The notes under the pieces were generated by a model. That model was given only the letters and a program-made list of their open reading frames with translations, was not told the origin of the DNA and made no database searches. A stretch of 32,000 nucleotides of DNA from Planctomycetales bacterium (lineage in GTDB: Bacteria > 4484-113 > JAFGCY01), in contig CP060262.1 in NCBI GenBank assembly GCA_022646745.1, positions 2,670,001 to 2,702,000 on the forward strand, written 5' to 3'. The translations under genes and the position numbers were made by a program. Positions 7,163 to 29,573 of this stretch are shown here, piece after piece (positions within the stretch are counted from its first letter, which is position 1; each line of letters starts with the position of its first letter).

Positions 7163-7165
7163 AGA

Positions 7166-7585
7166 ATGAAGCACATAATTTGTATTTGCATTATTCTGAC
7201 GACCCTGATGATCGTCTCCTGTTCTTCAGGCAAGGCAACGAGTGGAAATGTCTGGCAGGGCTGGGTCAGCATCCAGAGGTTCCTTGCCACTGACAGTGAG
7301 AGCGGTTCGATTCCAGTAGCCGGGAAACAGGCGACTCTCAGGGCTTTCGTTCTCACAATGGCGCGACCAATCAAGATCCGCTGGGAATTCGATGCAGCAA
7401 TTGATCCCATCGTCACGGATTACGCACAGGACAGTCTGGTGGAGACGGAGGTTCTGCTTCCCGCGAGTGAGGATGGTTACAACGTGAGATGCACCATGTA
7501 CGTGATCTACAACGACGAGGAAATCCACAGTTCTAGCAATGACTTCTTCGTCATTGGCACCGGCGAAATCCTGAACGCAGAATAG
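7166..7585 (+). CDS. truncated, degenerate member of the lipoprotein family (PKD-like module only)
   Basis: 139 aa. Lipobox MIVS|CSSG. Contains a degenerate signature KIRWEFDAAIDP. AT-richer than its neighbours. No C-terminal module. Confidence 0.55.
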   Translation: MKHIICICIILTTLMIVSCSSGKATSGNVWQGWVSIQRFLATDSESGSIPVAGKQATLRAFVLTMARPIKIRWEFDAAIDPIVTDYAQDSLVETEVLLPASEDGYNVRCTMYVIYNDEEIHSSSNDFFVIGTGEILNAE

Positions 7586-7608
7586 TTGCTTGAAGGGAGG
7601 GAAAAACC

Positions 7609-8847
7609 ATGTTCAGATTGTCAATCGCGATAATGCTGCTGTCAGTGCTGTGTTCCTGCAATGGTGGCGGGGGAAGCAAGTCGCAACCCTTCAACCACAA
7701 GCTGCAAATCACCCTCACTGACCCCGTCGGGCTCGGCAAGGATGCGCCGCTGCTGGCCGGTGGACAGCAGGCCCGCTTTTCAGCCGTTGTCACAGGGGTG
7801 AACGGCCCTTTCAACATCTCCTGGAACTTCGGCGGGGGCGCAGACAATACGACCAGTAGTCTCGCAGTGGCCGGTACAAGCACGGTGGACGTGCCGATGA
7901 AGGTGATCAGCGGCCAGCAGGACTACACAGCAACAGCGACGGTGACCGACGCTGCAGGAGTCAGCCAGACCTCAGCCATTAACTACCAGCTGCTGGGTTG
8001 GAACAATTCCGCACCGCTGATCGAGGACCTGACCCTGAGCAGCAGCAACCTCCTGACTGTGACAGCTTCTGACGAAGATGGCGACGAACTGAGCTTCAGC
8101 CTGCGCAGGGGGATAGATGACAAGGACCTCGGTCCGCCGGACAGCGTGGATGGCAACGTAGCAGTCTGGGACCTGAGCGATGAGCTGGCCCCGAGCCCGA
8201 ATGACATCCTCGCCAATGGCAATCTCAGCTTCGGCGGCTTCATCGCCACGGTTACGGATGAGCATGGTGCCAGCACTGAAAGCGAGCAGCTCGGAGGAAA
8301 CTTCGAGGCCTTCCCGTTGGAGGATGACACACTCTATGCGATTGCCAGTCGAAGGTCCGCAAAAGTTGGAAATCGCGTCAGGATATTCGTGGCAACCGGT
8401 GATACAGCCCAGCCATTCCTGTATCTCAATAGTTGCGCCGTTGTTGTCGAGAATGATGCCAGGCTGGTACCAAACTCACTTGATGGCGGCTCGTTTGATG
8501 ATGATGGCGCTGCGGACACGCCGATGGATGGTGTCTGGGCTGACGTTGCGGCAAGCAGTATCTTCGTGGATGCCGGTTTCGGTGGTTTCCTGGAGGGAAC
8601 TGACCTCGGTGATGGCACTTATTACATTCCCTTCCACGTAACGCCCTTCAACGGGACACCAATCACTGCAAATGGCTTGCTCTTCAGTTTTGAACTGGAA
8701 TTCCGCAAACCGGGGACCTACCATCTTGGCTTCCTGGAGCACAATGTCATTAGCCGGACCTACTACTCGGATTCTCTGGATGGCCCGGACCACTTCTGGT
8801 CAGACATCAGTAACAACCACGACTACAACACGATCGTGGTGGAGTAG
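7609..8847 (+). CDS. paralogous surface lipoprotein (PKD-like + cadherin-like + conserved C-terminal module)
   Basis: 412 aa. SD GGGAGGG. Lipobox VLCS|CNGG. Contains GPFNISWNFGGGADNTTS and TASDEDGDELSFS. C-terminal module: FPLEDDTLYAIAS...ANGLLFSFELEFRKPGTYHLGF...HFWSDISNNHDYNTIVVE. Confidence 0.85.
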   Translation: MFRLSIAIMLLSVLCSCNGGGGSKSQPFNHKLQITLTDPVGLGKDAPLLAGGQQARFSAVVTGVNGPFNISWNFGGGADNTTSSLAVAGTSTVDVPMKVISGQQDYTATATVTDAAGVSQTSAINYQLLGWNNSAPLIEDLTLSSSNLLTVTASDEDGDELSFSLRRGIDDKDLGPPDSVDGNVAVWDLSDELAPSPNDILANGNLSFGGFIATVTDEHGASTESEQLGGNFEAFPLEDDTLYAIASRRSAKVGNRVRIFVATGDTAQPFLYLNSCAVVVENDARLVPNSLDGGSFDDDGAADTPMDGVWADVAASSIFVDAGFGGFLEGTDLGDGTYYIPFHVTPFNGTPITANGLLFSFELEFRKPGTYHLGFLEHNVISRTYYSDSLDGPDHFWSDISNNHDYNTIVVE

Positions 8848-13195: not shown

Positions 13196-16100
13196 ATGAC
13201 TTTACGTAAGATGTTTACCGGCGTGCTCTGCATTCTCATCCTGCTGATCAGCGCGAGCTGCTCCAACAGCAAGAATGTTGGACTGTCCCAGCCGGATGAC
13301 CAGCGGAACACCACCGGTGTCAGCGTCGATTCCTTTGAGATCACCCGCTACAACGCGGCTGGTTTCGAGGATGCAAGCCTCAACCAGAGCATCGATGCTT
13401 ACATTGAGCAGGTGGGATCCGAGACTGCATTGGTCATCAGCGTTGATGAGCCGGATGTGGATCGCACGATTGCGCTCAACATCGACTTCGACGGCGTCAA
13501 CATGCATTACGAGCGCACCGAGTTCCACGGTCTGCTTGGCAATGATGACGATGTGCTGGGTGCCAGTTTCGGCCTGACTGAAAGTGTCCAGCTTGGCCAG
13601 ACGGCCATCCGTGACTACGATCCGGGCAGCATCAGTGGCCGCTTCGCCACTGTGTACTTCGCCCCCGGCGCGAGCCGTACGGCGAGTGCAATTCCCGGTG
13701 ATGTCTACAAGAGCAGCACCGGTGTTGCCGTCAACCGTTGCGGTGACAACGCCAGCTTCGTGGCTGACGAGGAAACCGAGAATGAGGCCTGGTTCACCAA
13801 TGGCTGGATGATGGCTGACGGTGACCAGAACGGCCAGTGCACGATTGCCGACATCACCCCGATCGGCATCTACCTGAACCAGAGCTGTGAGACCAACCCG
13901 CTCGCGACCCGTGCGGACTATGACAACAACGGCCAGGTTACGATTTCCGAGCTGACCCCGCTGGGCGTACACCTCAATGAGGGTGTGGCAAGTTATCGTG
14001 TTGGCCTGCGTGATGACGGTGATACCGGCACCACGCTGTCTGCAGAGAAGACCGTTGATCCCAGCGCGGACGCGATTGCCGCATCCGGCACTCCGGCGGT
14101 GGCTGATCTGCGCACGATCTTCCGTCATTACAACGTGGCATCCCTTTTCACCCCTGGTGAAATCGCGGCTGCCAACGTTAATGGCACCAACGGTGTCGAG
14201 ATCTGCGTGATTCCGACCAACACCAACTCTGCCAATGGCACCGGCACCCTGGCATTCGTGCCCTGGGGTGGCACAGTTGTTGGTCAGGATGATGAAATCG
14301 TTGTCACCAACTTCGACATCCAGATGGTGGGTGTCGGCGGCGGCAGCGGTGATGACAGCAACATCTTCGACAGCGGCATCAGCGGCGGTGACGTCACTGC
14401 CAACGCTGACGTGAGCTTCCAGGTGAACGCAATCGAGGGTACCTTCAACGGCCTTGACTTCGATGCCACCACCCTGCCAGAGGGCATGGACGCTGCTCAC
14501 TACGCCAATACCCTGACTGCTGTGCGAGACAATGCGAACTGGACCTTCGGCACTGCCGGAGCTGCCGGCTTCCGCAGTACCTCCGCCTGGGTGACTGACG
14601 GTGCGGGTAATGACCTTGGAGGCGTGGGCGACCCCGGCGCCGGTGTGGTCTTCCCGGATTACGACCCCGAGTCTGACGAGTTCAGCCCCGAGGGTACCCT
14701 GAATGTGAACCTCGCTGCCGCAGCCTCCCTGGCGACCGGCACCGTGGCCAGCAAGAACTACAAGGTCGTCGTGCTTTCCGAGCGTGATTACAACTGGACC
14801 GTGGATGTCCTCCGCGACCCGCAGCAGGCCACCTTTGGCCCGATCCTGAAGCAGGGCTTCGACCCGCAGGATGAGTACGCGCTTGTCATCGGTACCCGTT
14901 CCTTCTTCTTCACCGCCGATTGGGGCGATCTTGGCGTTCCCGCCAACTTCGACAGCATCGAGATGGAGATCTGGAAGGTCGAGGGCACCGGCCCGGGCAA
15001 CTGCTCCCGTGTCAACGACTTCACCTTCACCGAAGGTACCCCCGGTACCGGTGAGTTCGGCATTCGTGAGAACACTGAGAACCCCGGCGAGTACGTGTTT
15101 GAGTACGTCGTCAACGGTGCAAACCTGCAGGGTAGCAGCCAGTACGTGGTGCGCTGGTTCAACGGCGTTGAATGGTCCTCCATCAACATGCCCGAGAACA
15201 AGACCATCCCGTCCGGTCCTGCCCCGGCTGCCGCTGACCTGACCAGCATCCCGAACGCGGGCGGCTACAAGGGCAGCGCGAAGGTCGACTTCCTGCAGAT
15301 CCTCTACCCGAACCCGAAGATCCGCCGCTGGAGCGACGTGTTCCCGAACCCCGAGACTGAGTCAGTCGACGTTGAAAAGGGCCTCGACAACGACGGCGTC
15401 CAGGTTGACAAGACCCTGGCCTTCAATGACATTCTGCGCACCAACGGTGATGAGTTCGCGATCTTCGTGACCCCGATCGACAGCCCGCAGGGCTTCTCGA
15501 TCTGGCCCCAGGTCCTGATCAAGAACTTCACCGCCACCGGCGCCAGCGATGTCACCAGTGCTGACATCCCGCTTGCCACCCCGAGTGGCCCGATCTACTG
15601 GTCAGCCTCGGGCGCCAGCGCGATCATCGTCGCCCAGCACGGTCTTGGCCGAGTTGTGGTGGACATCGCCGGTCTTCCCACCGATGACGGTGAATTCGGC
15701 CCGATCAACTACGGTTTCGGCCTGTTCAGCCCGCAGGGTGTGGATTACCTTGAGGTTGGTGAAGGCACCTTCACCATGTCCCCGGTGGATGGCACCGTGG
15801 CCCCGAACGCGATCAACTGGGGTATCGACGCCTTCGACCGCGAGGAGCGCGACCTTGATAACGGTGATTACAGCAACCACATCCTCAACGGTTCCTTCGT
15901 GAACGACCCGGTCCAGCCCTTCGTGCTGTGGATCGAGTTCAACGGCGGTAACGTCTACGACTGGGAGCAGAACGAGGAGAAGGTCTGGAAGCTCAACGGC
16001 TCGCTGGACAACATCTATGTCCAGGTCAAGGACGTTGACCAGCCTGCTGATGTCCGCATCATGGAGGTTGGCCTGCGCCTTGTGGGTGTGACCCCGACCG

Positions 16101-16303
16101 GAACCTTCCTTGCAATCCACACGATCACCAACCGCGACTTCGTCAAGTTCGGCGCTCCGCCGAGCCAGACCTGGGGCATCCTTGCTCCGGGCCACAAGTA
16201 CGAGGTTTCGGTCAATGACCGTGTCCTCAGCCCCGGCGGCGACAGCTTCGGCACCGGCGCTGCTGACCTGCTGACCGTGATCGGTACCAACCCGAACACC
16301 TAG
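13196..16303 (+). CDS. large lipoprotein with a dockerin-like double EF-hand module
   Basis: 1035 aa. Lipobox LISAS|CSNS. Residues ~208-262 are DGDQNGQCTIADITPIGIYL...DYDNNGQVTISELTPLGVHL: two 12-residue D-x-D-x-N-G-x5-[DE] loops, each followed by a helix, as in type I dockerins. The rest is beta-rich with no recognisable catalytic motif. Codons are strongly biased like those of the 11777 gene. Confidence 0.8.
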   Translation: MTLRKMFTGVLCILILLISASCSNSKNVGLSQPDDQRNTTGVSVDSFEITRYNAAGFEDASLNQSIDAYIEQVGSETALVISVDEPDVDRTIALNIDFDGVNMHYERTEFHGLLGNDDDVLGASFGLTESVQLGQTAIRDYDPGSISGRFATVYFAPGASRTASAIPGDVYKSSTGVAVNRCGDNASFVADEETENEAWFTNGWMMADGDQNGQCTIADITPIGIYLNQSCETNPLATRADYDNNGQVTISELTPLGVHLNEGVASYRVGLRDDGDTGTTLSAEKTVDPSADAIAASGTPAVADLRTIFRHYNVASLFTPGEIAAANVNGTNGVEICVIPTNTNSANGTGTLAFVPWGGTVVGQDDEIVVTNFDIQMVGVGGGSGDDSNIFDSGISGGDVTANADVSFQVNAIEGTFNGLDFDATTLPEGMDAAHYANTLTAVRDNANWTFGTAGAAGFRSTSAWVTDGAGNDLGGVGDPGAGVVFPDYDPESDEFSPEGTLNVNLAAAASLATGTVASKNYKVVVLSERDYNWTVDVLRDPQQATFGPILKQGFDPQDEYALVIGTRSFFFTADWGDLGVPANFDSIEMEIWKVEGTGPGNCSRVNDFTFTEGTPGTGEFGIRENTENPGEYVFEYVVNGANLQGSSQYVVRWFNGVEWSSINMPENKTIPSGPAPAAADLTSIPNAGGYKGSAKVDFLQILYPNPKIRRWSDVFPNPETESVDVEKGLDNDGVQVDKTLAFNDILRTNGDEFAIFVTPIDSPQGFSIWPQVLIKNFTATGASDVTSADIPLATPSGPIYWSASGASAIIVAQHGLGRVVVDIAGLPTDDGEFGPINYGFGLFSPQGVDYLEVGEGTFTMSPVDGTVAPNAINWGIDAFDREERDLDNGDYSNHILNGSFVNDPVQPFVLWIEFNGGNVYDWEQNEEKVWKLNGSLDNIYVQVKDVDQPADVRIMEVGLRLVGVTPTGTFLAIHTITNRDFVKFGAPPSQTWGILAPGHKYEVSVNDRVLSPGGDSFGTGAADLLTVIGTNPNT

Positions 16304-16367: not shown

Positions 16368-16407
16368 AGTCAATCTGATTGACTTCACCCAGCCACTCTG
16401 GTATCAT
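16368..16407 (+). promoter_or_regulatory. arg operon promoter with an overlapping palindromic operator candidate
   Basis: TTGACT (16379-16384), 17-nt spacer, TATCAT (16402-16407). The perfect palindrome AGTCAAT-CTG-ATTGACT (16368-16384) covers the -35 box. Confidence 0.5.
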
Positions 16408-16417
16408 TCGCGAACCG

Positions 16418-16498
16418 ATGACCCAGATCATCAACAGCATTGAGCGCCGACGCCGCAGCAGCCGCCGACGAGGGCGGGCTGATGGCGCGCGTGGATAG
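16418..16498 (+). CDS. Arg-rich leader peptide candidate (26 codons)
   Basis: ATG 16418 ... TAG 16496-16498 encodes MTQIINSIERRRRSSRRRGRADGARG, with 9 Arg in 26 residues and 8 of them between codons 10 and 20. There is no SD, but the ATG lies only ~10 nt after the -10 box, so the transcript would be near leaderless. Confidence 0.45.
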   Translation: MTQIINSIERRRRSSRRRGRADGARG

Positions 16499-16520
16499 CT
16501 GTATCCCCCACGACATTCAA

Positions 16521-16552
16521 GGCCCGCTGTAATGGCGGGCCTTTCTGTTTTC
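16521..16552 (+). terminator. attenuator terminator upstream of argG
   Basis: GGCCCGC (16521-16527) pairs with GCGGGCC (16535-16541), followed by TTTCTGTTTTCT. It lies between the leader ORF and argG. Confidence 0.6.
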
Positions 16553-16606
16553 TAGCGTCAATCAGCCCCGGATCATTCCCTCATAACACCCAGGCAGGAG
16601 CAACTG

Positions 16607-17824
16607 ATGAACGACTATGCAGGCAAACCACTGGCGGTACTGGCCTTCTCCGGTGGTCTTGATACATCTTTTTGTGTTGTATGGCTCATTGAGCAGGGCT
16701 ATCGTGTCCATACTGTGCATGTGAACACCGGTGGCTTTGATGCCGCCGGCCTCGCTGCCATCGAGCAGCGGGCATTGCAGTGCGGTGCCCAGCAGCATGC
16801 CAGCATTGACGCCCGGGCCGACTTGTTCCAGTCGCACCTGCGCTACCTGCTGTTTGCCAACGCGCGGCGCGGTGCGGGATATCCGTTGTGTGTCTCTTCG
16901 GAGCGGCTCTGCCAGGCGCGGCACGCAGCTAAGTATGCTGTGGAGAATAAGGCTGATGCGATCGTGCATGGCAGTACCGGTGCCGGCAATGACCAGCTGC
17001 GCTTTGACACAGTGTTCGGGGTGATGGCTCCCGGCATCAGGCTACTCACACCGATCCGTGATCTGGCCCTCAGTCGCGAACAGGAGGTGGCCTACCTGGC
17101 AGGGCATGGCGTGGAAGTGGATGCCAGCACGGGATCCTACAGCGTGAACGCCGGAATGTGGGGTATGACCATCGGAGGCAGGGAAACCCATGGCAGCTGG
17201 GAAAGCCTGCCTGCTGAAGCATGGCCAGATGCGGCCTCTTCGCAGGTTGCTGTCCGGGAAATCATCATCGGTTTTGAGCAGGGCATTCCCATATCAGTCG
17301 ATGGCACGTCCATGCCGCCCGTGGAACTGATCGAGATGCTCAATACAGTCGGCGGGCAATTCGCAATCGGCCGCGGCATGCACCTCGGAGACACCGTGCT
17401 TGGCATCAAGGGCCGCGTGGCCTTCAGTGCCCCGGCTGCCCACATCCTGATTGAAAGCCACCGTGAACTGGAGAAACTTACACTGAGTGCCAGCCAGCAG
17501 TTCTGGAAGGAGACGCTTGGCAACCTCTACGGCCGGATGGTGCATGAGGGCCAGGCGCTTGATCCGCTCTGCCGCGACCTGGAGGCTATGCTCGAATCCA
17601 GCCAGCGCATGGTCAGCGGTGAGGTCCGCGTCAGGCTGCAGGATGGTTACATGCAGGTGCTGGGCAGCCGTTCGCCGCATTCGCTGATGGCGCTGCAGCC
17701 CGCTGCATATGGCGAGCAGTCCACTGGCTGGAGCGGGGATGAGGTCGCTGCCTACAATAAGCTGCATGCAATGCAGCAGAAGCTGTGCTGGGCCCAGCAG
17801 CAGCAGGCGGAGGCTGCGCAATGA
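16607..17824 (+). CDS. argG: argininosuccinate synthase
   Basis: 405 aa. Contains AFSGGLDTSF (N-type ATP pyrophosphatase motif), YPLCVSSER and HGSTGAGNDQLRFD. These variants look like the Bacteroidota-type ArgG as I remember it. Confidence 0.92.
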   Translation: MNDYAGKPLAVLAFSGGLDTSFCVVWLIEQGYRVHTVHVNTGGFDAAGLAAIEQRALQCGAQQHASIDARADLFQSHLRYLLFANARRGAGYPLCVSSERLCQARHAAKYAVENKADAIVHGSTGAGNDQLRFDTVFGVMAPGIRLLTPIRDLALSREQEVAYLAGHGVEVDASTGSYSVNAGMWGMTIGGRETHGSWESLPAEAWPDAASSQVAVREIIIGFEQGIPISVDGTSMPPVELIEMLNTVGGQFAIGRGMHLGDTVLGIKGRVAFSAPAAHILIESHRELEKLTLSASQQFWKETLGNLYGRMVHEGQALDPLCRDLEAMLESSQRMVSGEVRVRLQDGYMQVLGSRSPHSLMALQPAAYGEQSTGWSGDEVAAYNKLHAMQQKLCWAQQQQAEAAQ

Positions 17825-18888
17825 GGATCAGGGCTGACAAGATCGCCAGTGTGACGCGTGGGCTGTCGCTGGACAGCCAGCTCTCACTGGGCAGTGAGAT
17901 ACTCTGCCGGGAGGGAAGTGTCGTCGCATGTCGCGTGCTCAACGACAAGTCCACCTACCGGCAGCTGGAGGACATCCACGGCCGAATGACCTCAGTCAAG
18001 CGCGGAGACGTGATCGTCGGTGTGCTTGGCAACCGGCAGGCCCTGCATGGCTATGAGGGCCACGTGCCTGAATCGCTGGCAGTCGGCGACAGGTTGCAGC
18101 TGCTGAACCTTGGCGGGGTGATCGGAGTCTGCACCTCAGCCAATCCTGAAGTCGGTCCACCCTTTGAACTGGAACTGCTGGGCCAGGTCCAGAGCTATCC
18201 CGGCTTCCAGTCGCGGCGTCCGGTGGCAGCGGAGATCAGCCAGCCTGATGCAGGCTTGCCTGAGCTCAGTAATATCCCGCCGATCGTTCTGATCTGCGGC
18301 AGCTGCATGAACAGCGGCAAGACCGTGGCCGCCAGTGCGATCGTCAGTGAACTGTGCCGGGCCGGCCTGCTGGTTGCTGGCGCAAAGCTGACTGGCGTAT
18401 CCCTGCTGCGTGATGTGCTCTCCATGAAGGACTACGGCGCTGCCAACGTGATGGATTTCACCGATGCCGGATTCCCGAGCACGGTACCCAGCAATGCCGT
18501 GATGGCTGCCCGCCGCGTGGTCAATGGACTGTCGCAGTTCAAGCCGCAGGTGATTGTCGTGGAAATGGGAGACGGGATCTTTGGCACCTATGGTGTGCAG
18601 CAGATCCTTGACGACAGCAGCATCGCCGGCTGCATCAAGGTGCTGGTGTACTGTGCGAATGACCCGGCCGGAGCCTTCGGTGGGGCCCGCCAGCTGCAGG
18701 AGCGGCACGGGCTGGCGCTTGATGTGGTCAGTGGTCCTGTGACCGACAACCAGGTCGGACGACGCTATATCGAGGAGGAGCTCGGATTGCCTGCAATAAA
18801 TGCAAGAATGGATGCGGCGGCACTCGGTGGGCTGGCATTACAGGCGCTGGGCTACGGTCCTGCTGGAGGCGGCGATGCGACAGATTGA
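17821..18888 (+). CDS. uncharacterised P-loop protein embedded in the arg operon
   Basis: ATG 17821 overlaps the argG stop (ATGA). 355 aa. The N-terminal ~150 aa look beta-rich (GSVVACRVL...KRGDVIVGVLGNRQ). A Walker-A-like motif ICGSCMNSGKT follows, then a hydrophobic strand with acidic residue VIVVEMGDG. The 3' end overlaps argC by 14 nt. Confidence 0.6.
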   Translation: MRIRADKIASVTRGLSLDSQLSLGSEILCREGSVVACRVLNDKSTYRQLEDIHGRMTSVKRGDVIVGVLGNRQALHGYEGHVPESLAVGDRLQLLNLGGVIGVCTSANPEVGPPFELELLGQVQSYPGFQSRRPVAAEISQPDAGLPELSNIPPIVLICGSCMNSGKTVAASAIVSELCRAGLLVAGAKLTGVSLLRDVLSMKDYGAANVMDFTDAGFPSTVPSNAVMAARRVVNGLSQFKPQVIVVEMGDGIFGTYGVQQILDDSSIAGCIKVLVYCANDPAGAFGGARQLQERHGLALDVVSGPVTDNQVGRRYIEEELGLPAINARMDAAALGGLALQALGYGPAGGGDATD

Positions 18889-19933
18889 CGTGATCATCAT
18901 CGGAGCCAGCGGCATGGGAGGCGGTGAGCTGTTGCGCTACCTCATGCAGCATCCACTTGCCAATCCCATTCAGCTTGTCAGCCGCAGCCGGGCAGGGGAG
19001 TCCGTCGCGTCAGTCCATCCGCATCTCGGAGCCTATGCACAGATGCGCTTTGAGGCCAGTCTGGGACTGCCCTCAGGCGAATCCAGCGACCCGCTTGTCA
19101 TCTTCTGCGCGATGGGACATGGCGAGTTTGCCCAGTCCTGGCCAGCGCTGCGCGACCAGCTGGAGTTGCTCAGGAAGCACAGGAGGGTAGTCGTGATCGA
19201 CATCTCCGCTGACTTCAGGCTGAGTGACCCTACAGCATGGCTCAAATACTATTGTGAGGCGCATCCCTGCCCGCAGTACCTGGATGATTTCGTCTACGGC
19301 CTGCCGGAACATGCCCGGGACGCAATCGCCATCTCAGACCGGATTGCCAGTCCAGGCTGCTTTGCCACCGCGATCAACCTCTGCCTGCTGCCACTTGCCG
19401 GCAGAATAAGCAGCAAGCATGTAGCCATCGCTGCCATGACCGGCAGCAGCGGCTCCGGCAATCGTCCATCAGAAGGCACGCACCATCCATTCAGGGCGCA
19501 TGACCTGCGCGCTTACCAGATGCTGCGCCACCGGCACCAGGCTGAACTGGAGATGATGCTGGCAGCCCGTGGCAACAAGGATGTGCGGATCTCCTTCGTG
19601 CCCCACAGTGCCCCGCTGGTGCGCGGGATCTTTGCAACGGTGATGATTGACTGTGACAGTGCCGCCGAAGCGCGTGAGCTGGCTGGACTGGTTGCCAGCA
19701 GCTATGAGGGCGAGCCATTCGTGCATTACACTACCGCCTCGCCACGTGTGGCTGTGGTTGCCGGCAGCAACATGGCACAGGTCACGGTCAGCAGTGAGGA
19801 TCGCAGCCTGCTCGTGATGTGTGCGATTGACAACCTTGGCAAGGGCATGGCTGGGCAGGCAATCCAGAACATGAACATCGCACTCGGGCTTGATGAAACC
19901 AGCGGGCTGCAGTCAGCGGCGGTCTACCCCTAG
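18875..19933 (+). CDS. argC: N-acyl-gamma-glutamyl-phosphate reductase
   Basis: The internal ATG 18875 gives MRQIDVIIIGASGMGGGELLRYL, a Rossmann NAD(P) fold. The catalytic Cys motif is ASPGCFATA. C-terminal motif: DNLGKGMAGQAIQNMN. Confidence 0.9.
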   Translation: MRQIDVIIIGASGMGGGELLRYLMQHPLANPIQLVSRSRAGESVASVHPHLGAYAQMRFEASLGLPSGESSDPLVIFCAMGHGEFAQSWPALRDQLELLRKHRRVVVIDISADFRLSDPTAWLKYYCEAHPCPQYLDDFVYGLPEHARDAIAISDRIASPGCFATAINLCLLPLAGRISSKHVAIAAMTGSSGSGNRPSEGTHHPFRAHDLRAYQMLRHRHQAELEMMLAARGNKDVRISFVPHSAPLVRGIFATVMIDCDSAAEARELAGLVASSYEGEPFVHYTTASPRVAVVAGSNMAQVTVSSEDRSLLVMCAIDNLGKGMAGQAIQNMNIALGLDETSGLQSAAVYP

Positions 19934-19936: not shown

Positions 19937-20935
19937 ATGGCAATGCGACACATCACACACATCAGGGATCTTGGAGTAGATGGAGTCAGCCGCGTGCTGG
20001 ACCGGGCACTGGGCTGGAAGACCACTGCACCTGGCGCTATCTTCAGCGGCCGGATCCTTGGCATGCTGTTCTTCAACCCCTCACTGCGCACAAGGGCCTC
20101 CTTTGAGGCTGCCATGCTGCGGCAGGGCGGCCATGCGATAGTCATCGACGTGAACTCCGGCAGCTGGAAGCTTGAAACCGCGGATGGAGCAGTGATGGAT
20201 GGCGACAGGCCGGAGCATATCCGTGAAGCCATCCCCGTACTCGGCGGCTACGTGGACGCGCTGGCAGTGCGCTGCTTTGCCGACGGCAATCCGGCAGTGG
20301 ACGTGCAGGACCAGCTGATGCACAGCATCCGGGCCCACAGCCTTGTGCCCGTCGTCAGCATGGAGTCGGCACGGGAGCATCCCTGCCAGGGCCTGGCTGA
20401 CATGCTGACAATCCGCGAACACTGTGGCGAACTGGCAGGCAGGAAAGTGACACTGAGCTGGGCGCCACACATCAAGCCGCTGCCGCAGGCCGTGCCGAAC
20501 AGCTTCCTGCTGAGTGCCGCAGCAGCGGGCTGTGAGATAACGGTTGCCCATCCGCCCGGGCTTGAGCTGCAGGATGAGGTGCTGAGTGAAGCACAGCAGC
20601 TTGCGCAGGAAAGCGGTGCACGGATCAGCTTTCGCAATGACCAGCAGGCAGCCTGTGCTGATGCGGAAGTGTTATATGCCAAGAGCTGGGGTGGAGCAAC
20701 GGATCTGGATTTCGCCGAGCTTGCAAGGCAGCATAGCGGTTGGCAGGTCACGCGCAGCCTGCTTGAAGCAGGCAATGTGCGCAGCAAACTGATGCACTGC
20801 CTGCCGGTCAGGCGCAACGTGGTGCTCAGTGACGACGCGCTGGACTCGGAGCTGAGCCTGGTGGCACCGCAGGCGCACAACCGCCTGCATGTGCAGCGCA
20901 GCCTGCTGCATGAAGTGTTCAACGGAGGAAACTGA
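19937..20935 (+). CDS. argF: N-acyl-L-ornithine carbamoyltransferase (AOTCase/SOTCase family; Pro92 suggests succinylornithine type)
   Basis: 332 aa. Contains FFNPSLRTRASFE, VMDGDRPEHIRE, HPCQ, YAKSWG, HCLPVRRNV and HNRLHVQ. These match the remembered Xanthomonas AOTCase motifs (FFNPSMRTRTSFE, VMDGDTEEHIAE, HCLPLRRNV, ENRLHVQ) rather than a classical OTCase. Confidence 0.85.
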   Translation: MAMRHITHIRDLGVDGVSRVLDRALGWKTTAPGAIFSGRILGMLFFNPSLRTRASFEAAMLRQGGHAIVIDVNSGSWKLETADGAVMDGDRPEHIREAIPVLGGYVDALAVRCFADGNPAVDVQDQLMHSIRAHSLVPVVSMESAREHPCQGLADMLTIREHCGELAGRKVTLSWAPHIKPLPQAVPNSFLLSAAAAGCEITVAHPPGLELQDEVLSEAQQLAQESGARISFRNDQQAACADAEVLYAKSWGGATDLDFAELARQHSGWQVTRSLLEAGNVRSKLMHCLPVRRNVVLSDDALDSELSLVAPQAHNRLHVQRSLLHEVFNGGN

Positions 20936-21810
20936 TGCACGGATACTATGAATTCCTGCGGACAGCGACGCCCTATGTGCGCGCCAACCGAGGCCGGCTG
21001 TTCGTTGTCAAGCTTGGCGGCGAGATGCTGGACGACCCGCGCATTGCCAGCCAGATCCTTGAGCAGGTGGCGATGCTGCAGCACCTCGGCATAAACATGA
21101 TGCTCGTGCATGGCGGTGCGCCGCAGATCGCCAGCCTCTGTGGGCGGCTTGGATTGCCCGTGCAGATGCACGCCGGCCGCCGCATCACGGATAAGCAGGT
21201 GCTGGAGGCGGTTTCCATGTCACTGTGCGGCAGCATGCAGTCGCACATCTGTGCCGAGCTAACGGCCCTCGGAGTACGGAGTGTCGGTGTCAGCGGAGCT
21301 GATGCCGGCCTCGTGGTTGCCAGTCGCCGTCCGCCGGTGGATGACGGCAGTGGCAACATGGTGGACTTTGGGGAGGTCGGCGACATCACCGACATTGACG
21401 CTTCGCTGATCGCTACACTCAGTGACAACGGCTTCTTGCCGGTGGTGGCCCCGCTGGCCAGTGACGGAGCCGGGCAGCTGCTGAATATCAATGCAGATAC
21501 AGTTGCCGCCGGTCTGGCGGTTGCCTGCGGTGCTGCCAAGCTGATCTTCATGATGAGACCAGCCGGAATCCTCGCCAATGCTGATGACCCGGGCAGCCTG
21601 ATCCCGGAACTCAGCCTTGCGGAACTGAAGGCACTTGAGTCAGATGGATCAATCAGTGGCGGCATGCTGCCGAAGTCGGCTGCCACGCACAGCGCCATTG
21701 CTGGCGGGGTGGAGCGCGTGCACTTCGTCAGCGGCCTGGCTGAGGATGCTCTGCTGCGTGAGATCTTCACCAATGAAGGCAGCGGCACGATGGTGGTGCC
21801 GGATGCTTGA
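20935..21810 (+). CDS. argB: N-acylglutamate kinase
   Basis: 291 aa. The start overlaps the argF' stop by 1 nt. Contains VVKLGGEML, LVHGGAPQI and NINADTVA, amino-acid kinase family motifs. Confidence 0.9.
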   Translation: MHGYYEFLRTATPYVRANRGRLFVVKLGGEMLDDPRIASQILEQVAMLQHLGINMMLVHGGAPQIASLCGRLGLPVQMHAGRRITDKQVLEAVSMSLCGSMQSHICAELTALGVRSVGVSGADAGLVVASRRPPVDDGSGNMVDFGEVGDITDIDASLIATLSDNGFLPVVAPLASDGAGQLLNINADTVAAGLAVACGAAKLIFMMRPAGILANADDPGSLIPELSLAELKALESDGSISGGMLPKSAATHSAIAGGVERVHFVSGLAEDALLREIFTNEGSGTMVVPDA

Positions 21811-22861
21811 TCTGCTGGCACAGCTCGTTTCCATCCGCAGCCTGTCGCGTGAGGAACATGCCTGCGCGGACTTCGTCGAGGGCTGGGCCAGGGATGCCGG
21901 GTTCAGCCCCCAGCGGATTGCCAACAACATCGTGTTTGTGCTTGGCAGTGGTGGGCCGCGCCTGATGCTGAATTCGCACATCGACACTGTACCGCAGTGC
22001 AGCGGCTGGCTAGCCGACCCCTGGACCCCGCGAATTGAGGGTGGAAGGCTGACGGGGCTTGGTGCCAACGATGCCAAGGGCTGCGTGACGGCGATGCTGC
22101 TGGCTGCCCGAGAGCTGGCCGAACAAGGCTGGGACGGACCAGGCACGCTTGTAGTACTGATCAGCGCTGAAGAGGAGATCGGCGGTGAGAATGGCATCCA
22201 GCTCGCCCTGTCGCAGCTGGCGCCGATGGATGCCGCCATCAACGGTGAACCGACAGGGCTGGCTCCCTGCAATGCGCAGCGTGGCATGCTGCTGCTGGAA
22301 TGCAGCAGCCATGGCAATTCCGGGCATGCGGCACATGCACACAAGCTGGGTCTTGAAAATGCTGTGCATGCCGCAGCCCGCGACATCAGCTGCCTGAGTG
22401 AAATGCAGTTTGAACCATATGAAGAGGTCTACGTAACCCGGCCACAGGTCACGGTTGTCAAGGGCGGGCTGAGCCACAACCAGGTGCCGGACCTATGTGA
22501 GTTCCAGGTGGACATCCGCACCACACCGAACCTTGACCATGACGAGACCCTGGCATGGATCCGCAGCCAGCTCTCATGCGATGTGCGCTGCCGCTCGGCT
22601 CGCTACCTGCCGGTCAGTACATCGCGCAGCCATCCCGTTGTCAGGGCGGCAGTCGCGGCCAGCGGCAGGGAGACATACTTCAGCGACACATGCAGCGACT
22701 GGTCGCTGTACGGCGGCATCCCGACAGTCAAGCTTGGACCGGGTGAAAGCCCGCGCAGCCACCGTCCCGAGGAATACATCCTCGAGTCGGAACTGCTCGC
22801 TGGCGTGGAGATCTACCGGGAAACTGTTTTGCGTTTCTTCGAGGAGGCTGGCAATGAGTGA
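21803..22861 (+). CDS. argE: M20-family deacylase (ArgE-like; predicted acyl-citrulline/acyl-ornithine deacylase)
   Basis: The internal ATG 21803 gives MLDLLAQLVSIRSLSREEHACADFV. Contains LNSHIDTVP, GANDAKG and SAEEEIGG, the M20 metal ligand motifs. It overlaps argB by 8 nt. Confidence 0.8.
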   Translation: MLDLLAQLVSIRSLSREEHACADFVEGWARDAGFSPQRIANNIVFVLGSGGPRLMLNSHIDTVPQCSGWLADPWTPRIEGGRLTGLGANDAKGCVTAMLLAARELAEQGWDGPGTLVVLISAEEEIGGENGIQLALSQLAPMDAAINGEPTGLAPCNAQRGMLLLECSSHGNSGHAAHAHKLGLENAVHAAARDISCLSEMQFEPYEEVYVTRPQVTVVKGGLSHNQVPDLCEFQVDIRTTPNLDHDETLAWIRSQLSCDVRCRSARYLPVSTSRSHPVVRAAVAASGRETYFSDTCSDWSLYGGIPTVKLGPGESPRSHRPEEYILESELLAGVEIYRETVLRFFEEAGNE

Positions 22862-24200
22862 TGGACAACTATGGAGCAAGCAGCTGCCGCTGGACCGGCT
22901 GGTGCATCGCTTCACCGTCGGCAACGACCACCTGCTGGACCTGCAGCTGGTGGGCTGGGACCTGTACGGTACTGCAGCGCATGCCAGGATGCTGGGCCGG
23001 CAGGGACTGATTCCCGCTGCTGACGCTGACAGCATCATCGCCGGCCTCAGGCAGATCATGCAGCAGGTTGATGCCGGTGAATTCGTGATCACTGCCGAAC
23101 AGGAGGATTGCCATACTGCAATTGAGCAGGCGCTACGTGGGATCTGTCCGGCAGCGGCTGGCAATGTGCACCTCGGCCGGTCCCGCAATGACCAGGTGCT
23201 GACTGCACTGCGGCTGTATATGAAGCATGCCGTGTTCAGCATCAACCAGGATCTCGGCGCACTGGCAAGTGAGTTCAATTCGCAGGCAGCTTCCCATATG
23301 GAGATGCTGATGCCGGGCTACACGCACCTGCGCCGTGCGATGCCGAGTACGGTCGGCCGCTGGCTGCTGGCTTTCAGTGCCGGACTGCTGGAGGAGCAGC
23401 ATGCCGAATCAGGACTGCTGCAGCGGATTGACAGCTGTCCGCTGGGGAGCGGCGCTGGCTTCGGCCTGCCACTGCCGCTGGACCGGCAGTACACAGCCGA
23501 GCTGCTTGGTTTCAGCCGGGTGCAGCTCAGCGAGATTGACTGCGCCAACTCCCGCGGACGCCATGAGATTGCGCTGGCGGGCTGGATCTGTTCCATCGGC
23601 AACCAGCTGGAGAAATTCGTCTGGGACCTGAGTCTTTACAGTACCGAGGAGTACGGCTTCGTCAACCTGCCGGATCAATTCACAACCGGATCATCCATCA
23701 TGCCCCAGAAGCGCAATCCGGATGTGCTGGAACTGATGCGCGGCCGGATCGCCCAGTTGCGTGCCTGGCGTAATGAACTGGAACAGGTGCACAGTGGACT
23801 GCCTTCCAGCTACCACCGTGACTACCAGCTGCTGAAGCCGGCCCTGTTTGCCAGCGTTTCCGGCATCCTGGAGCTGCTGGCAATCTGCCGCCACATCCTG
23901 CCTGGGCTGGAGTTCCACCGGGAGCGGATGCTTTCAGCCTGCACGTCTGAGCTGTTCGCCACCGAGGAGGCTTATCGCAGAGTTCGGCAGGATGGTCTCG
24001 CCTTCAGGGATGCATACAAGCAGGTTGGCATCGAAGTCGTGGGTGGCAAAACAGGATTCTCAGTAGATGCAGCCAGCTGGCAAATTCCGGATGACTGGCA
24101 GATTGATGTGGAAACCATCGGTAGCGAGATCACTGTGCTGGCGTCTGGCAATGCAGAGCTGTCGGCTAATTTTATGAAGCAGCTCGACTCGCTGCTGTAG
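22854..24200 (+). CDS. argH: argininosuccinate lyase
   Basis: The internal ATG 22854 gives MSDGQLWSKQ... Contains TAAHARML, HLGRSRNDQV and the fumarate-lyase signature GSSIMPQKRNPD. It overlaps argE by 8 nt. Confidence 0.92.
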   Translation: MSDGQLWSKQLPLDRLVHRFTVGNDHLLDLQLVGWDLYGTAAHARMLGRQGLIPAADADSIIAGLRQIMQQVDAGEFVITAEQEDCHTAIEQALRGICPAAAGNVHLGRSRNDQVLTALRLYMKHAVFSINQDLGALASEFNSQAASHMEMLMPGYTHLRRAMPSTVGRWLLAFSAGLLEEQHAESGLLQRIDSCPLGSGAGFGLPLPLDRQYTAELLGFSRVQLSEIDCANSRGRHEIALAGWICSIGNQLEKFVWDLSLYSTEEYGFVNLPDQFTTGSSIMPQKRNPDVLELMRGRIAQLRAWRNELEQVHSGLPSSYHRDYQLLKPALFASVSGILELLAICRHILPGLEFHRERMLSACTSELFATEEAYRRVRQDGLAFRDAYKQVGIEVVGGKTGFSVDAASWQIPDDWQIDVETIGSEITVLASGNAELSANFMKQLDSLL

Positions 24201-26017: not shown

Positions 26018-27211
26018 GTGGGACTGTCCCTCGCACGCAACCTGAAGCTCTATCCCTGGTACCTGTCACTTACTTGGGAAGGGCTCAGCAACGCAGTCTG
26101 GTACCTCTACCTGTTCAGCTTCAAGGGCTTGAGCCTCGGGGAAATGGCCTGGCTCGTATTGCTCGGTGATGGGGTGACGGTCATTTCAGAAGTGCCGACG
26201 GGCTGGATTGCTGACCGTATCGGTCGCCGCCGCAGCATCCTGCTTGGCATCATCCTTCAGGCACTCAGTGCAGTGCTGTTCATCTTCGGAAATGACTTCT
26301 GGACATTCTGGCTGGCAATGGCCGTCTGCGGACTGGGAGACACATTTCGCAGCGGGGCTGATGAGGCCTTGTTGTATGACAGTTGCCGTGGGCTAAACCG
26401 GGTGCCTGACTACCGCCGGCTGCTGTCCCGCTCAATGGCGATTGCCACCGTAGCGATGGTAGCAGGGCAGATACTCGGTGGAATGATGGCAACCCGCATA
26501 AGCTGGACCCTGCCGTTCTGGTGTGAATTGGCCGTCAGCACGGCAGGGTTCCTGGTTGTGCTTTCCATGCTGGAAGCACCGCACACTGATGATGTGGATG
26601 ATGAAGAAGGGCCCGGTAGCCGCGTCAGCCTGTTACCCTCTCTGCTGCGCCTGCTACCGCTGTTCATTTTTGCAGCGAGCATCGAGCTTGCACCTGAGCT
26701 TTCGCATTTTCACTTCCCTGCAGAACTCGAACAGGCGATCGGCCTGACGCCTGAGCAGCTCGGCTTCATGTACGCAGGCTTCGAACTGCTGCAGGGACTT
26801 GGCAACTGGCTGGCTGGTCATGTCAGTTTCCGTCGACCGCTGATGGTTCTCGCTGGCAGCAGCATTGCAATGCTGGCTGGCCTGCTGTTGCTGGGAACGC
26901 GGTCCTGGGCCGGTTTGGCCGTCTTCATCGTGGGCCGCGCGCTGATCGACCTGATGACGGGACTGGCGGCTCCACTGATCAGCGAGGAAGCGAACAGGCT
27001 GACCGGATCGGCCAACCGGGCCACCGTGCTGAGCATCCTCAATGCTGCAAGCAGGTTGCTGCCATTGTCAGTCCTGCCGCTCAGTGCAAGCCTGATTGCA
27101 GCATCTGGCCCGACGAAGATGTATGCAGTCTTCGCCGGGGCCATGTTGCTTCCCATTGTCATCAGTTTGTTGTGGATGTTCTCACTGGAGCGCCGTCAGG
27201 CACAGGCCTAA
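26018..27211 (+). CDS. MFS transporter
   Basis: MFS motif A is GWIADRIGRRRS. Multiple hydrophobic helices run throughout. The track ORF start at 25730 overlaps the esterase gene. There is no ATG before the first TM segments, so I propose GTG 26018; the start is uncertain. Confidence 0.7.
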   Translation: MGLSLARNLKLYPWYLSLTWEGLSNAVWYLYLFSFKGLSLGEMAWLVLLGDGVTVISEVPTGWIADRIGRRRSILLGIILQALSAVLFIFGNDFWTFWLAMAVCGLGDTFRSGADEALLYDSCRGLNRVPDYRRLLSRSMAIATVAMVAGQILGGMMATRISWTLPFWCELAVSTAGFLVVLSMLEAPHTDDVDDEEGPGSRVSLLPSLLRLLPLFIFAASIELAPELSHFHFPAELEQAIGLTPEQLGFMYAGFELLQGLGNWLAGHVSFRRPLMVLAGSSIAMLAGLLLLGTRSWAGLAVFIVGRALIDLMTGLAAPLISEEANRLTGSANRATVLSILNAASRLLPLSVLPLSASLIAASGPTKMYAVFAGAMLLPIVISLLWMFSLERRQAQA

Positions 27212-28401
27212 TTGGACAGGCGGCCGATGAAGGCCCCGAATTCATAGCGATCGGGGTCAATCAGGCGCGGAGCCATGTTCACCTTGCTCGTGAACAGCCA
27301 GTCCGCCAGCACATCAGAATCGGATCCACTCAGGCTGCCTGGCGTGAAGCCGGCTCTTATCAGCTGGATACCCATGCCGTCCAGGTGCGGCTGCGCATTG
27401 GCCTCCGGCTGCCCTGTGGCGATTGCCTGGGGAATGCCGACCATGCTTTCATATGCATGCATGAAGGCCGCGAGCCTGTCCTGCTGTCCTTCGGCTGGAC
27501 GGCGCAGTTCGCGCAGCAGCAACACACCGTCACTTGTGAGCAGTGCATGCAGCTGGCCGAGGTAAGTTCCGGCATCTGCCTGATTGCGCAGGCCGCAATT
27601 GACAATCACGAGGTCGAAGCGGTTTCCGCTTCCCTCCGGCGGATTGCCGGTTTCATCGAAGCTGAGGTTGTGAGCGTTATTGCGCAGCTGCAGCTTGCGA
27701 GCCATGCGGATCGCCGCGGGATTACGGTCATAGCCGATGAAGCGGCTGCGCGGATAACGCCGGGCCAGATGTGCCAGCAGCTGGCCGCTGCCACAGTCCG
27801 GCTGCAGCACCATTGCTCCAATCTCCAGTTTCCGCTTCATTCCGGGCGCGAGGGAAAGGACCTCTTCCAGTGCTACGCAGGCAGCTTCCTGTTCTATGCC
27901 ATCCTCGATCTCCAGCTGGCGCTGGTATTCGCGTGGATGGACTCCGCAGCGGTGGGCCATTGAATCACTCACGAGGCCCTCTACATTGCCAAACAGGCCG
28001 ATGTACTGTGACAGCGCCGCGGCACTGCTCCCCGTAGCGCTGCCAAGCAGGGCATCAATCCCGTATCCGGGAATTGAATAACGGCCACTCTCGCCGTCGC
28101 GGCTGACAATCCCGGCGCTGCTCATGCAGTCCAGCCAGCTTGTCAGTTGCCTCTCTCCCAGTCCGCAGCTGGTCGAAAGGTCCTCGGCGGTGGCACTGCC
28201 CATTTCCGCCAGCAGGGCAAACAGGCCGCGCCGGTGCCCGATTGAGACCAGCACCGCAGTGGCGGCCTCACTGAGCATGCTGTGCATGCGGTCCTGGAAC
28301 AACAGGCTGCGCACGTCAGCCTCCGATTGGGTCATAGTGGTAGGCATAGCTGTATCCATGGGTGGTGGCGGGCCGGAACCAGCCGGCCCGCCCCGGAGCA
28401 T
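27208..28401 (-). CDS. wHTH + class I SAM-dependent methyltransferase (divergent paralog of the upstream gene)
   Basis: 397 aa. The N-terminal LVSIGHRRGLFALLAEMGSATAEDLSTSCGLGERQLTSWLDCMSSAGIV is a winged-helix/dimerisation domain. SAM motif I is VLQPDCGSGQL. The ATG overlaps the stop of the upstream gene (ATGA). Confidence 0.75.
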   Translation of the reverse strand: MLRGGPAGSGPPPPMDTAMPTTMTQSEADVRSLLFQDRMHSMLSEAATAVLVSIGHRRGLFALLAEMGSATAEDLSTSCGLGERQLTSWLDCMSSAGIVSRDGESGRYSIPGYGIDALLGSATGSSAAALSQYIGLFGNVEGLVSDSMAHRCGVHPREYQRQLEIEDGIEQEAACVALEEVLSLAPGMKRKLEIGAMVLQPDCGSGQLLAHLARRYPRSRFIGYDRNPAAIRMARKLQLRNNAHNLSFDETGNPPEGSGNRFDLVIVNCGLRNQADAGTYLGQLHALLTSDGVLLLRELRRPAEGQQDRLAAFMHAYESMVGIPQAIATGQPEANAQPHLDGMGIQLIRAGFTPGSLSGSDSDVLADWLFTSKVNMAPRLIDPDRYEFGAFIGRLSN

Positions 28402-29477
28402 CAGACATTCATGATGTAGTAGTAGTTGAACGGGTCGTGGGCCAGTTCCTTGGTCTCTAGCGTGCTGAACCCGGCCTCGCCGACCATCCGCTCCGCGAGC
28501 TCACGGCCCCAGCAGGTACCGAGGCCAGCGCCGCCGTTGGCGAGTGATACCGTCATGCAGTGCGTGGTGGAGACCGTGTACAGGAAGGTGCCGACGAAGT
28601 GGTCCTTGTTGTCATGCAGGTGGCTGCAGGCCTTGATGTCCTGCATCAGGTACACACCACCATCCTTCAGTGCACGGCGCACGTTCTTGAGAACCCGGGC
28701 CGGATCAGCCTGGTCATGGATCACGTCGAAGGCGGTGACGAGGTCGAACTTGGCAAGCTCATCCCAGGCTGCGATATCCTGCACCTTGAAGTTGATGTTC
28801 GTCAGGCCCTTGCTCCTGGCAAGCTCGATCGCGGCCTCGACAGCGGGAGCCTCGAAGTCATAACCGGCGAAGGTGCTGTTCGGGTACATCTCAGCCATGC
28901 GGATGGCAGCGTGGCCGCTGCCGCAACCGATGTCAACGCAGTTGATGCCGGCACTGAGGCGCTCATGCAGGCCCTCAACAGCGGGAATGATGCTGTCCTT
29001 CAAGCCAGCCAGCACGGTCTGGTCGCTGAAGTCCGCCATCACGGGATGGAAGCGCTCGAACTCGCTGTAGGGCACGCCGCCACCGTTACGGAAGGCATCC
29101 ACCAGCGGGGTCTCGACGCCGCCCATCACAGGGATGAACTGCATCACAGTCGCCACATTGTGGGCACCAGCCTTGCTGGTGATCACGGCTGCATGCTCAG
29201 CCGGCAGGTGGTAACGGTTGGTATCCCGGTCGAATTCGACAACGCCGCCGGTCACCATCGCGCCAAGCCACTCACGGACGTAACGCTCATTGAGCCCGCC
29301 CTGCTCGGCGATCTCGTGGGTGGTGGCCCAGTCAAGCTGGGTCAGGGTCTCAAGAGCACCGGTACGGTGGCCCAGGGAAATCATCAGGGCCAGGCTGGCA
29401 TCGTTGACAATTCCGACCATGCGACCGCCGAAGGCCTCGGCACGCGACGCGTCAAACTGCTTCTGCATAACAGACAT
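28401..29477 (-). CDS. Rv2258c-like wHTH + class I SAM-dependent methyltransferase
   Basis: ATG at 29477 (MSVMQKQF) is preceded by GAGGTGAT. Contains ISLGHRTGALETL, GLNERYVREWLGAMVTGGVVEF, SAM motif I VDIGCGSGH and FDVIHDQADPARVL. These closely resemble my memory of M. tuberculosis Rv2258c. Confidence 0.8.
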   Translation of the reverse strand: MSVMQKQFDASRAEAFGGRMVGIVNDASLALMISLGHRTGALETLTQLDWATTHEIAEQGGLNERYVREWLGAMVTGGVVEFDRDTNRYHLPAEHAAVITSKAGAHNVATVMQFIPVMGGVETPLVDAFRNGGGVPYSEFERFHPVMADFSDQTVLAGLKDSIIPAVEGLHERLSAGINCVDIGCGSGHAAIRMAEMYPNSTFAGYDFEAPAVEAAIELARSKGLTNINFKVQDIAAWDELAKFDLVTAFDVIHDQADPARVLKNVRRALKDGGVYLMQDIKACSHLHDNKDHFVGTFLYTVSTTHCMTVSLANGGAGLGTCWGRELAERMVGEAGFSTLETKELAHDPFNYYYIMNV

Positions 29478-29573
29478 TTCAATCACCTCGTAGAGCTTTA
29501 CCGGGCTATCCTGGCAACTGCGGATTTGGCAATTCCCTGCCCGACGCCGGAATAATATCCAGAAAATCCGGCT

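Follow-up and report, generated by a model that had tools for sequence, protein, structure and literature searches.

A P-loop protein encoded between argG and argC as a predicted first enzyme of arginine biosynthesis in a Planctomycetales bacterium

The arginine biosynthesis operon of a Planctomycetales bacterium includes, between argG and argC, a gene for a two-domain P-loop protein, called X here, that is quite likely the first-step enzyme of the operon, whichever acyl donor it uses. The operon lies in a 32,000-nucleotide stretch of DNA (GenBank assembly GCA_022646745.1, contig CP060262.1, positions 2,670,001 to 2,702,000 of the forward strand), which is referred to as the window and whose positions are counted from its first letter. 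This judgment is based on gene context and elimination: X homologs are linked to arg clusters, no other candidate for the first step is found in those clusters, and X is coupled to the operon. The full statement, in which X is the missing first enzyme, makes N-succinyl-glutamate, and draws on an acyl-coenzyme A (acyl-CoA) donor, is given somewhat better than even chances. At the family level the finding is not new because a preprint (GapMind 2026) already predicts this role.

The window operon has the order argG-X-argC-argF'-argB-argE-argH, without argD, and consists of the following genes.

16607..17824, + strand: argG, argininosuccinate synthase (Pfam/NCBIfam)
17821..18888, + strand: X, two-domain protein of 355 residues, predicted N-acylglutamate or N-succinylglutamate synthase (open reading frame, conserved family, arg linkage)
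18875..19933, + strand: argC (Pfam/NCBIfam, junction)
19937..20935, + strand: argF', N-acylornithine carbamoyltransferase, with the Pro92 codon at 20210-20212 (NCBIfam, alignment)
20935..21810, + strand: argB, N-acylglutamate kinase of 291 residues, kinase domain only, with no fused acetyltransferase (Pfam/NCBIfam)
21803..22861, + strand: argE-type M20 (ArgE/DapE-type) deacylase, predicted N-acylcitrulline deacylase (Pfam/NCBIfam, junction)
22854..24200, + strand: argH, argininosuccinate lyase, which closes the operon (Pfam/NCBIfam, junction)

The X gene starts with the ATG at 17821, which overlaps the argG stop codon in the sequence ATGA (17821-17824) and is preceded 9 nt upstream by a GGAGG Shine-Dalgarno sequence, and it ends with the TGA at 18886-18888, beyond the argC start (ATG at 18875), so that X and argC overlap by 14 nt. 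A GTG at 17785 can be ruled out as an alternative start because homologs align from the MRI..DKI start that they share with X. Farther downstream, 3 nt separate argC from argF', the sequence TGATG joins argF' and argB with a 1-nt overlap at 20935, and overlaps of 8 nt are present both between argB and argE (ATG at 21803) and between argE and argH (ATG at 22854). X is thus co-transcribed and translationally coupled with the arginine pathway. The original prediction, made from the letters of the window, had placed X at 17821-18888 with overlaps at nearly every junction, and the coordinates bear this out. It had also described the cluster as lacking both a glutamate N-acyltransferase and ArgD. 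This description holds for the 32-kb window, where Pfam and NCBIfam searches find no GNAT, ArgA, ArgJ, or class-III aminotransferase.

The association of X with arg genes, first noticed in the window, extends to its homologs. When one genome was scanned for each bacterial species, at least 590 relatives were obtained (590 of the 600 pattern matches examined), and the window arg proteins were placed on the best 80 of these loci. In all 80 the homolog is located inside an arg cluster, with argG directly upstream in 69 and argC directly downstream in 75; four of the remaining five loci stop at a contig edge. The commonest order is argF'-argB-argE-argH-argG-X-argC (24 loci), followed by the order of the window (16 loci, usually with a gap after argC) and argF'-argB-argH-argG-X-argC (10 loci). 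Hosts belong to at least eight phyla, among them Acidobacteriota, Myxococcota, Gammaproteobacteria, Planctomycetota, Gemmatimonadota, Verrucomicrobiota, Armatimonadota, and Bdellovibrionota. They include Holophaga, Geothrix, Myxococcus, Corallococcus, and Hyalangium, as well as Lysobacterales, Phycisphaerae, Planctomycetales, Gemmatimonadales, Chthoniobacterales, Armatimonadota, and Bdellovibrionales.

The argument by elimination draws on 16 clusters where argC is followed by a gap of about 1.2 kb that holds the gene for ArgD, a class-III aminotransferase, with argF' (in locus L058, argB) on its other side. These clusters hold enzymes for all steps from ArgB to ArgH together with X, and therefore only the first step, that of ArgA, is left without an enzyme. 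No GNAT or ArgJ gene is present in the arg clusters of the 80 best loci, analyzed with flanks of up to 8 kb, where small open reading frames are limited to those for a PIN toxin, a GxxExxY protein, and ArgR. Also, the clustered ArgB proteins carry no C-terminal acetyltransferase extension, the longest extension being 35 residues. The earlier proposal that X is a co-expressed, non-orthologous replacement for the first-step acyltransferase is therefore supported, as a predicted function, by linkage in 80 of 80 loci, by elimination, including the lack of an in-cluster GNAT, ArgJ, or fused ArgA/B, and by a published prediction.

Ten gammaproteobacterial clusters, those with the order argF'-argB-argH-argG-X-argC, keep X and have no M20 argE gene. 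Since these clusters retain X while the window has both genes, X is neither the deacylase nor a helper specific to it. The argE-less gammaproteobacterial loci are L005, L006, L007, L009, L010, L012, L015, L017, L020, and L035 (and L040). In such clusters the N-acylcitrulline deacylase is likewise without an in-cluster candidate, as the preprint notes for Steroidobacter (GapMind 2026).

The acyl group can be judged from the carbamoyltransferase. In the GDRPEH motif of the window ArgF', Pro92 aligns with P90 of the N-succinylornithine enzyme of Bacteroides fragilis and with the substituted residue of the E92P mutant of the Xanthomonas campestris N-acetylornithine enzyme. Among 63 linked ArgF' proteins this specificity residue is Ala in 32, Pro in 14, Val in eight, Ser in five, Thr in three, and Ile in one, and it is Glu in none. 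Under the specificity rule for position 92 (X. campestris numbering), in the form in which the preprint quotes it (GapMind 2026), residues of this kind and the absence of Glu predict succinylated intermediates. Thus, the acyl group is probably succinyl and not acetyl.

The published prediction concerns the family of ACG33_RS14135 (A0A127FCT3), which is proposed to be an alternative N-succinylglutamate synthase (GapMind 2026). The grounds given are that this family is almost always found in arg operons, that it never co-occurs with ArgA orthologs, that position 92 of the linked ArgF' is A, P, S, V, I, or T in 90-97% of cases, and that in Foldseek the protein weakly matches DgcN (PDB 7XRJ; E 1.4e-7, rmsd 5.6 Å). 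The same preprint reports that Steroidobacter lacks argE. X matches this description in that both are P-loop proteins of clusters with argB, argC, argD, argF', argE, argG, and argH, and sometimes argR; in both the ArgF' residue is never Glu, argE-less gammaproteobacterial clusters exist, any link to DgcN is remote, and the function is a prediction. No Steroidobacter entry is among the 240 homolog matches listed.

A parallel case is provided by Bacteroidota, for which the original prediction had named a GNAT gene of presumed first-step function next to argG and argC. This was correct: BT3761 is a GNAT-type N-succinylglutamate synthase that is encoded beside these two genes and feeds a succinyl-type ArgF' (PMC8121099). 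X resembles BT3761, and also the classical ArgA, ArgJ, and bifunctional ArgA-B enzymes, in predicted reaction and pathway position. In contrast, its fold is unrelated to theirs, and Pfam and NCBIfam find no GNAT, amino-acid-kinase, or ArgJ domain in X.

The protein itself belongs to a large and well-conserved family, even though X has no match in Pfam (even at E <= 10), in NCBIfam, or among PDB sequences. A homolog search gave 2,175 matches at E <= 1e-3 among scored candidates. With a gammaproteobacterial member as the query, 7,139 database proteins match at E <= 1e-30, and X is therefore not a chance reading frame; in an exhaustive library the family forms 1,891 clusters at 50% identity. Homologs are about 350 residues long, align end to end, and keep at least 50% identity across phyla. 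The closest relatives are in the Planctomycetales metagenome-assembled genome (MAG) of locus L011 (82% identical over 221 residues up to the contig end) and in an unclassified bacterium (P0002, 82%). The AlphaFold2 model (predicted local distance difference test score, pLDDT, 91.5) consists of a beta-rich N-terminal domain (in the model, about residues 1-125) followed by an alpha/beta P-loop domain, with these elements.

17821..18240, + strand: N-terminal all-beta domain, about residues 1-140 (AlphaFold2, conservation)
18268..18855, + strand: C-terminal SIMIBI or dethiobiotin-synthetase-like P-loop domain, about residues 150-345 (Foldseek, profile, hhalign)
18298..18324, + strand: BioD-type Walker A loop GSCMNSGKT, from G160 to K167 and T168 (conservation)
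18385..18387, + strand: codon of invariant K189 in the AKLTG motif, aligned with K37, a catalytic residue of dethiobiotin synthetase (conservation, hhalign)
18550..18576, + strand: Walker B-like strand VIVVEMGDG, whose invariant E248 aligns with BioD E115 (conservation, hhalign)

The beta-rich first domain and the SIMIBI-like P-loop with these motifs had been read from the letters of the window, and both are seen again in the sequence, the model, and the Foldseek matches. Seven residues, R72, P83, G166-K167-T168, K189, and E248, are invariant across 54 divergent family members; in the N-terminal domain S10, G32, E50, and D63 are near-invariant in addition to R72 and P83. A catalytic cysteine in the P-loop was considered and rejected, since C162 is Ser in several members. 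When modeled separately, the N-terminal domain reaches a pLDDT of 95.4, and a Foldseek search of the PDB gives it no significant match (best E = 0.83, template modeling, or TM, score 0.25).

What the present analysis adds to the published prediction is that X is not a member of DUF1611/DgcN, that its N-terminal domain is without a PDB match, and that its P-loop domain is at least as similar to BioD and signal recognition particle (SRP) GTPases as to DgcN. The original prediction had named the DUF1611/DgcN family as a precedent and left membership open. Membership fails on PF07755 (DUF1611_C), on PF17396 (DUF1611_N), and on gene context: X has no Pfam match, its N-terminal domain is all-beta, and its neighbors are arg genes. 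PF07755, whose gathering score X does not reach, is nevertheless the Pfam family most often touched by the 54 surveyed members, with weak matches in 36 of them (best E 8.5e-5), compared with 34 for CbiA, 33 for MobB, and 16 for AAA_26. These weak matches span positions 4-88 of 201, which is the P-loop segment, and scores of homologs range from 16 to 26 bits against a cutoff of 25, in the P-loop part only. Two myxobacterial homologs just pass this cutoff (25.7 and 26.4 bits), with matches confined to the first 50-88 of the 201 positions; both are 68% identical to the gammaproteobacterial query, and P0358, one of the pair, shares 55% identity with X. That these two pass over the P-loop part explains why NCBI and UniRef name close homologs 'DUF1611 domain-containing' or 'D-glutamate N-acetyltransferase-like', names that were counted in favor of the acyltransferase function.

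The N-terminal half differs more clearly. DUF1611 proteins carry a Rossmann-like N-terminal domain (PF17396) and are represented by structures in the PDB. The N-terminal domain of X has no Pfam match to PF17396, and it is not DUF1611_N because it is all-beta and finds no PDB fold despite the presence of DUF1611 structures there. Judged by sequence comparison, then, DUF1611 is a remote relative of only the P-loop half of X. DgcN keeps its P-loop and is reported to be an acetyl-CoA-dependent D-glutamate N-acetyltransferase, as cited in the preprint (GapMind 2026), so that on this account the two proteins share a P-loop-type domain and action on the amino group of glutamate, which for X is a prediction. 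Their contexts differ, DgcN belonging to D-glutamate catabolism (dgc) and X to arginine biosynthesis. X would use L-glutamate and probably a succinyl group, whereas DgcN uses D-glutamate and an acetyl group.

A dethiobiotin-synthetase-like fold, which had also been put forward for examination, was found by both Foldseek and hhalign. The top Foldseek matches of the X model are SRP54/FtsY and BioD, with E from 2e-6 to 1e-5; the BioD structures 1DTS and 3OF5 match at about 1e-5 (1.2e-5) with TM scores on the target of 0.50-0.53. When a family profile is compared with PDB sequences, BioD is found at E 9e-5, and FtsY and MobB are also matched at the level of the P-loop. Alignment to E. coli BioD by hhalign (81% probability) superimposes the GTxxxxGKT loop and pairs K189 with K37 and E248 with E115, so that K167, T168, K189, and E248 of X correspond to K15, T16, K37, and E115 of BioD, the ATP/Mg and mixed-anhydride residues of that enzyme. 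X therefore shows the BioD-like fold with its constellation of loop, Lys after strand 2, and Walker B Glu. The curated cutoffs of AAA_26 and CbiA are not reached by X or by the 54 members surveyed, which give weak matches only. X also differs from BioD, CobB/CobQ, and AAA_26 proteins in having an extra N-terminal domain and an arg rather than a bio context, and any use of ATP by X is conjectural. On the basis of the model, the P-loop domain is at least as close to BioD and SRP GTPases as to DgcN.

The best-supported scheme can be assembled from these features. X would N-acylate L-glutamate, most likely yielding N-succinyl-L-glutamate, which would be carried to arginine by ArgB, ArgC, an ArgD encoded elsewhere, the succinyl-type ArgF', the M20 deacylase, ArgG, and ArgH. 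By analogy with known N-acylglutamate synthases and DgcN, the donor would be succinyl-CoA. The P-loop residues K167 and T168, together with K189 and E248, would form the binding site for the donor's nucleotide-diphosphate portion, and the unique N-terminal beta domain with its invariant R72 would hold glutamate.

Several observations weigh against this scheme. The nearest detectable relatives of X use ATP or GTP, not CoA. The analogy to DgcN is weak for a protein without a Pfam match at E <= 10: 7XRJ is not among the best 50 Foldseek matches of the X model (147 at E <= 0.001), and PDB sequences searched with the family profile at E <= 10 yield no DUF1611 structure. X itself departs from the family at residue 243 (18547-18549), just before the Walker B strand, which is Gln in X and Asp in 91% of the 54 members. 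Furthermore, the preprint gives the function of the ACG33_RS14135 family as a prediction only (GapMind 2026). X and that protein very probably form one family, as judged by matching descriptors.

Because the P-loop domain resembles BioD and SRP GTPases at least as much as DgcN, an ATP-dependent mechanism for the same pathway step must be entertained, in which X would activate free succinate (or another acid) as an acyl phosphate that then reacts with glutamate at its alpha-amino group. C-N bonds are formed in this manner, and on the same fold, by dethiobiotin synthetase, CobB/CobQ, and CTP synthase. Both by sequence and by profile, the P-loop domain is most closely related to dethiobiotin synthetases (the profile and hhalign matches given above), BioD ranks with SRP GTPases in Foldseek while DgcN is outside the best 50, the Walker A loop has the BioD spacing GxxxxxGKT, and the four invariant residues match those assigned to ATP/Mg and mixed-anhydride chemistry. 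The M20 deacylase, in addition, would give back free succinate for reuse. However, to our knowledge every characterized N-acylglutamate synthase uses acyl-CoA. The conserved Walker motifs also do not separate a transferase from a ligase, because DgcN, in the preprint's citation of it, keeps its P-loop as an acetyl-CoA-dependent enzyme (GapMind 2026). Overall, the ligation mechanism is less likely than acyl-CoA chemistry, yet its chance is a real one. A stronger form of this proposal, in which X would found a distinct family that joins a novel all-beta glutamate-binding domain to a BioD-like P-loop domain and would ligate succinate to glutamate at the cost of ATP, by way of an acyl phosphate and not by acyl-CoA transfer, is equally tentative. 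If it were true, a new type of reaction would open the arginine pathway in at least eight bacterial phyla.

Other roles fit the gene context less well. X might be an accessory SIMIBI nucleoside triphosphatase (NTPase), such as a metallochaperone for the M20 enzyme, a factor for assembly or scaffolding, or a regulatory protein, with the first step encoded elsewhere. The SIMIBI class is rich in chaperone and regulatory NTPases, HypB, MeaB/ArgK-like proteins, and MobB are among the fold and Pfam matches, and the absence of ArgA seen here covers the 32-kb window rather than the whole genome. This role is nonetheless improbable, given that X is kept in ten clusters without an M20 gene, that its fixed place is beside argC and argG and not argE, and that all 355 residues, including the N-terminal domain with its invariant Arg, are at least 50% identical across at least eight phyla. 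Where a cluster has argD, ArgA is the one enzyme it lacks, and the likely orthologs of X never co-occur with ArgA orthologs (GapMind 2026). A final possibility is that X takes over the ArgD or ArgE reaction or provides carbamoyl phosphate or another co-substrate, as might be suggested by the lack of argD in the window operon, the lack of argE in gammaproteobacterial clusters, and the involvement of a carbamate in BioD chemistry. Replacement of either enzyme was rejected on co-occurrence, since 16 clusters combine X with argD and most combine it with argE, and a P-loop fold is incapable of pyridoxal phosphate-dependent transamination. The carAB genes are normally encoded elsewhere because they are shared with pyrimidine synthesis, which counts against supply of a co-substrate. 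This last group of roles is very improbable. The first-step function therefore remains the preferred assignment for X.

Many Myxococcota, Acidobacteriota, Planctomycetota, Gemmatimonadota, and Verrucomicrobiota, and some Gammaproteobacteria, seem to synthesize arginine although no N-acetylglutamate synthase can be recognized in them. If X is the first enzyme, pathway reconstructions and auxotrophy predictions would be put right for genomes and MAGs in their thousands, arginine synthesis would have a fifth way of taking its first step that is structurally unrelated to the others, and a function would be gained for a family labeled 'hypothetical' or 'DUF1611 domain-containing'. As the idea is already contained in the preprint, the value that remains lies in experimental confirmation and in the mechanism, either a CoA-dependent transferase or an ATP-dependent ligase.

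Expression of the operon might be tied to arginine supply by a leader upstream of argG.

16379..16553, + strand: putative arginine attenuator with promoter, leader open reading frame, and terminator (sequence, comparison with L011)

Its three elements lie within 300 bp upstream of argG. They are a sigma-70-like candidate promoter (TTGACT-17-TATCAT, 16379-16407), a leader open reading frame of 26 codons at 16418-16498 (MTQIINSIERRRRSSRRRGRADGARG) in which eight of codons 10-20 specify Arg, and an intrinsic terminator at 16519-16543 formed by a GC-rich hairpin and a T-run. L011 (2410-2675), the closest relative, shares the promoter, the Arg run (ERRRR..RRRGRA.GARG), and the terminator. Among the 80 loci there is one further weak leader candidate (L045) and one likely spurious open reading frame. 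A search of the leader against Rfam found no matching family, with only a sub-threshold match to Trp_leader. An antiterminator was sought and rejected, as the leader without the 3' terminator arm folds no better than shuffled sequence (z = 0.07). By its sequence features, the leader is a putative arginine attenuator linking operon expression to arginine supply, a link that was counted in favor of the first-step role of X.

Distant two-domain paralogs of X, with 24-31% identity and no arg linkage, are borne on plasmids.

L082, 6863-7891, and L083, 6896-7957: Bacillus/Priestia plasmid paralogs
L081, 6965-8062, and L084 and L085, both 6848-7900: Rhodobacterales plasmid paralogs

In Bacilli these genes are found in phosphoenolpyruvate (PEP)-mutase or phosphonate-type clusters with a carbamoyltransferase and ATP-grasp ligases, to which Priestia adds an M20 peptidase. 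In Sulfitobacter and Paracoccus they lie between a small upstream gene, encoding an alpha/beta hydrolase in Paracoccus and a hypothetical protein in Sulfitobacter, and an ATP-binding cassette (ABC) exporter. The prokaryotic genome annotation pipeline (PGAP) names the plasmid paralogs 'DUF1611 domain-containing' or 'dethiobiotin synthase'; all their scores to the Pfam DUF1611 family are below threshold, and one is just above the CbiA cutoff (26.6 versus 25.4 bits). Nine plasmid records found by tblastn were considered as true DgcN-type proteins and rejected, since the matches far exceed the P-loop segment and most start within the N-terminal domain, as expected for X-like paralogs. If the ATP-dependent ligation proposal is right, the paralogs in phosphonate-type natural-product clusters may catalyze the equivalent reaction with other amino acids.

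The remainder of the window includes two groups of paralogous genes. Between 3371 and 12982 on the + strand, seven tandem lipoprotein-like genes encode proteins of about 400-470 residues with 25-71% mutual identity, for which no Pfam family was found except for a weak PKD match in the last. This array is preceded by a YjbH-like gene (842-2833) and followed by a gene for a lipoprotein of 1,035 residues without a family match (13196-16303). On the - strand, two adjacent paralogs (27211-28401 and 28404-29648) each encode an Rv2258c-like winged-helix domain joined to a class I S-adenosylmethionine (SAM) methyltransferase domain.

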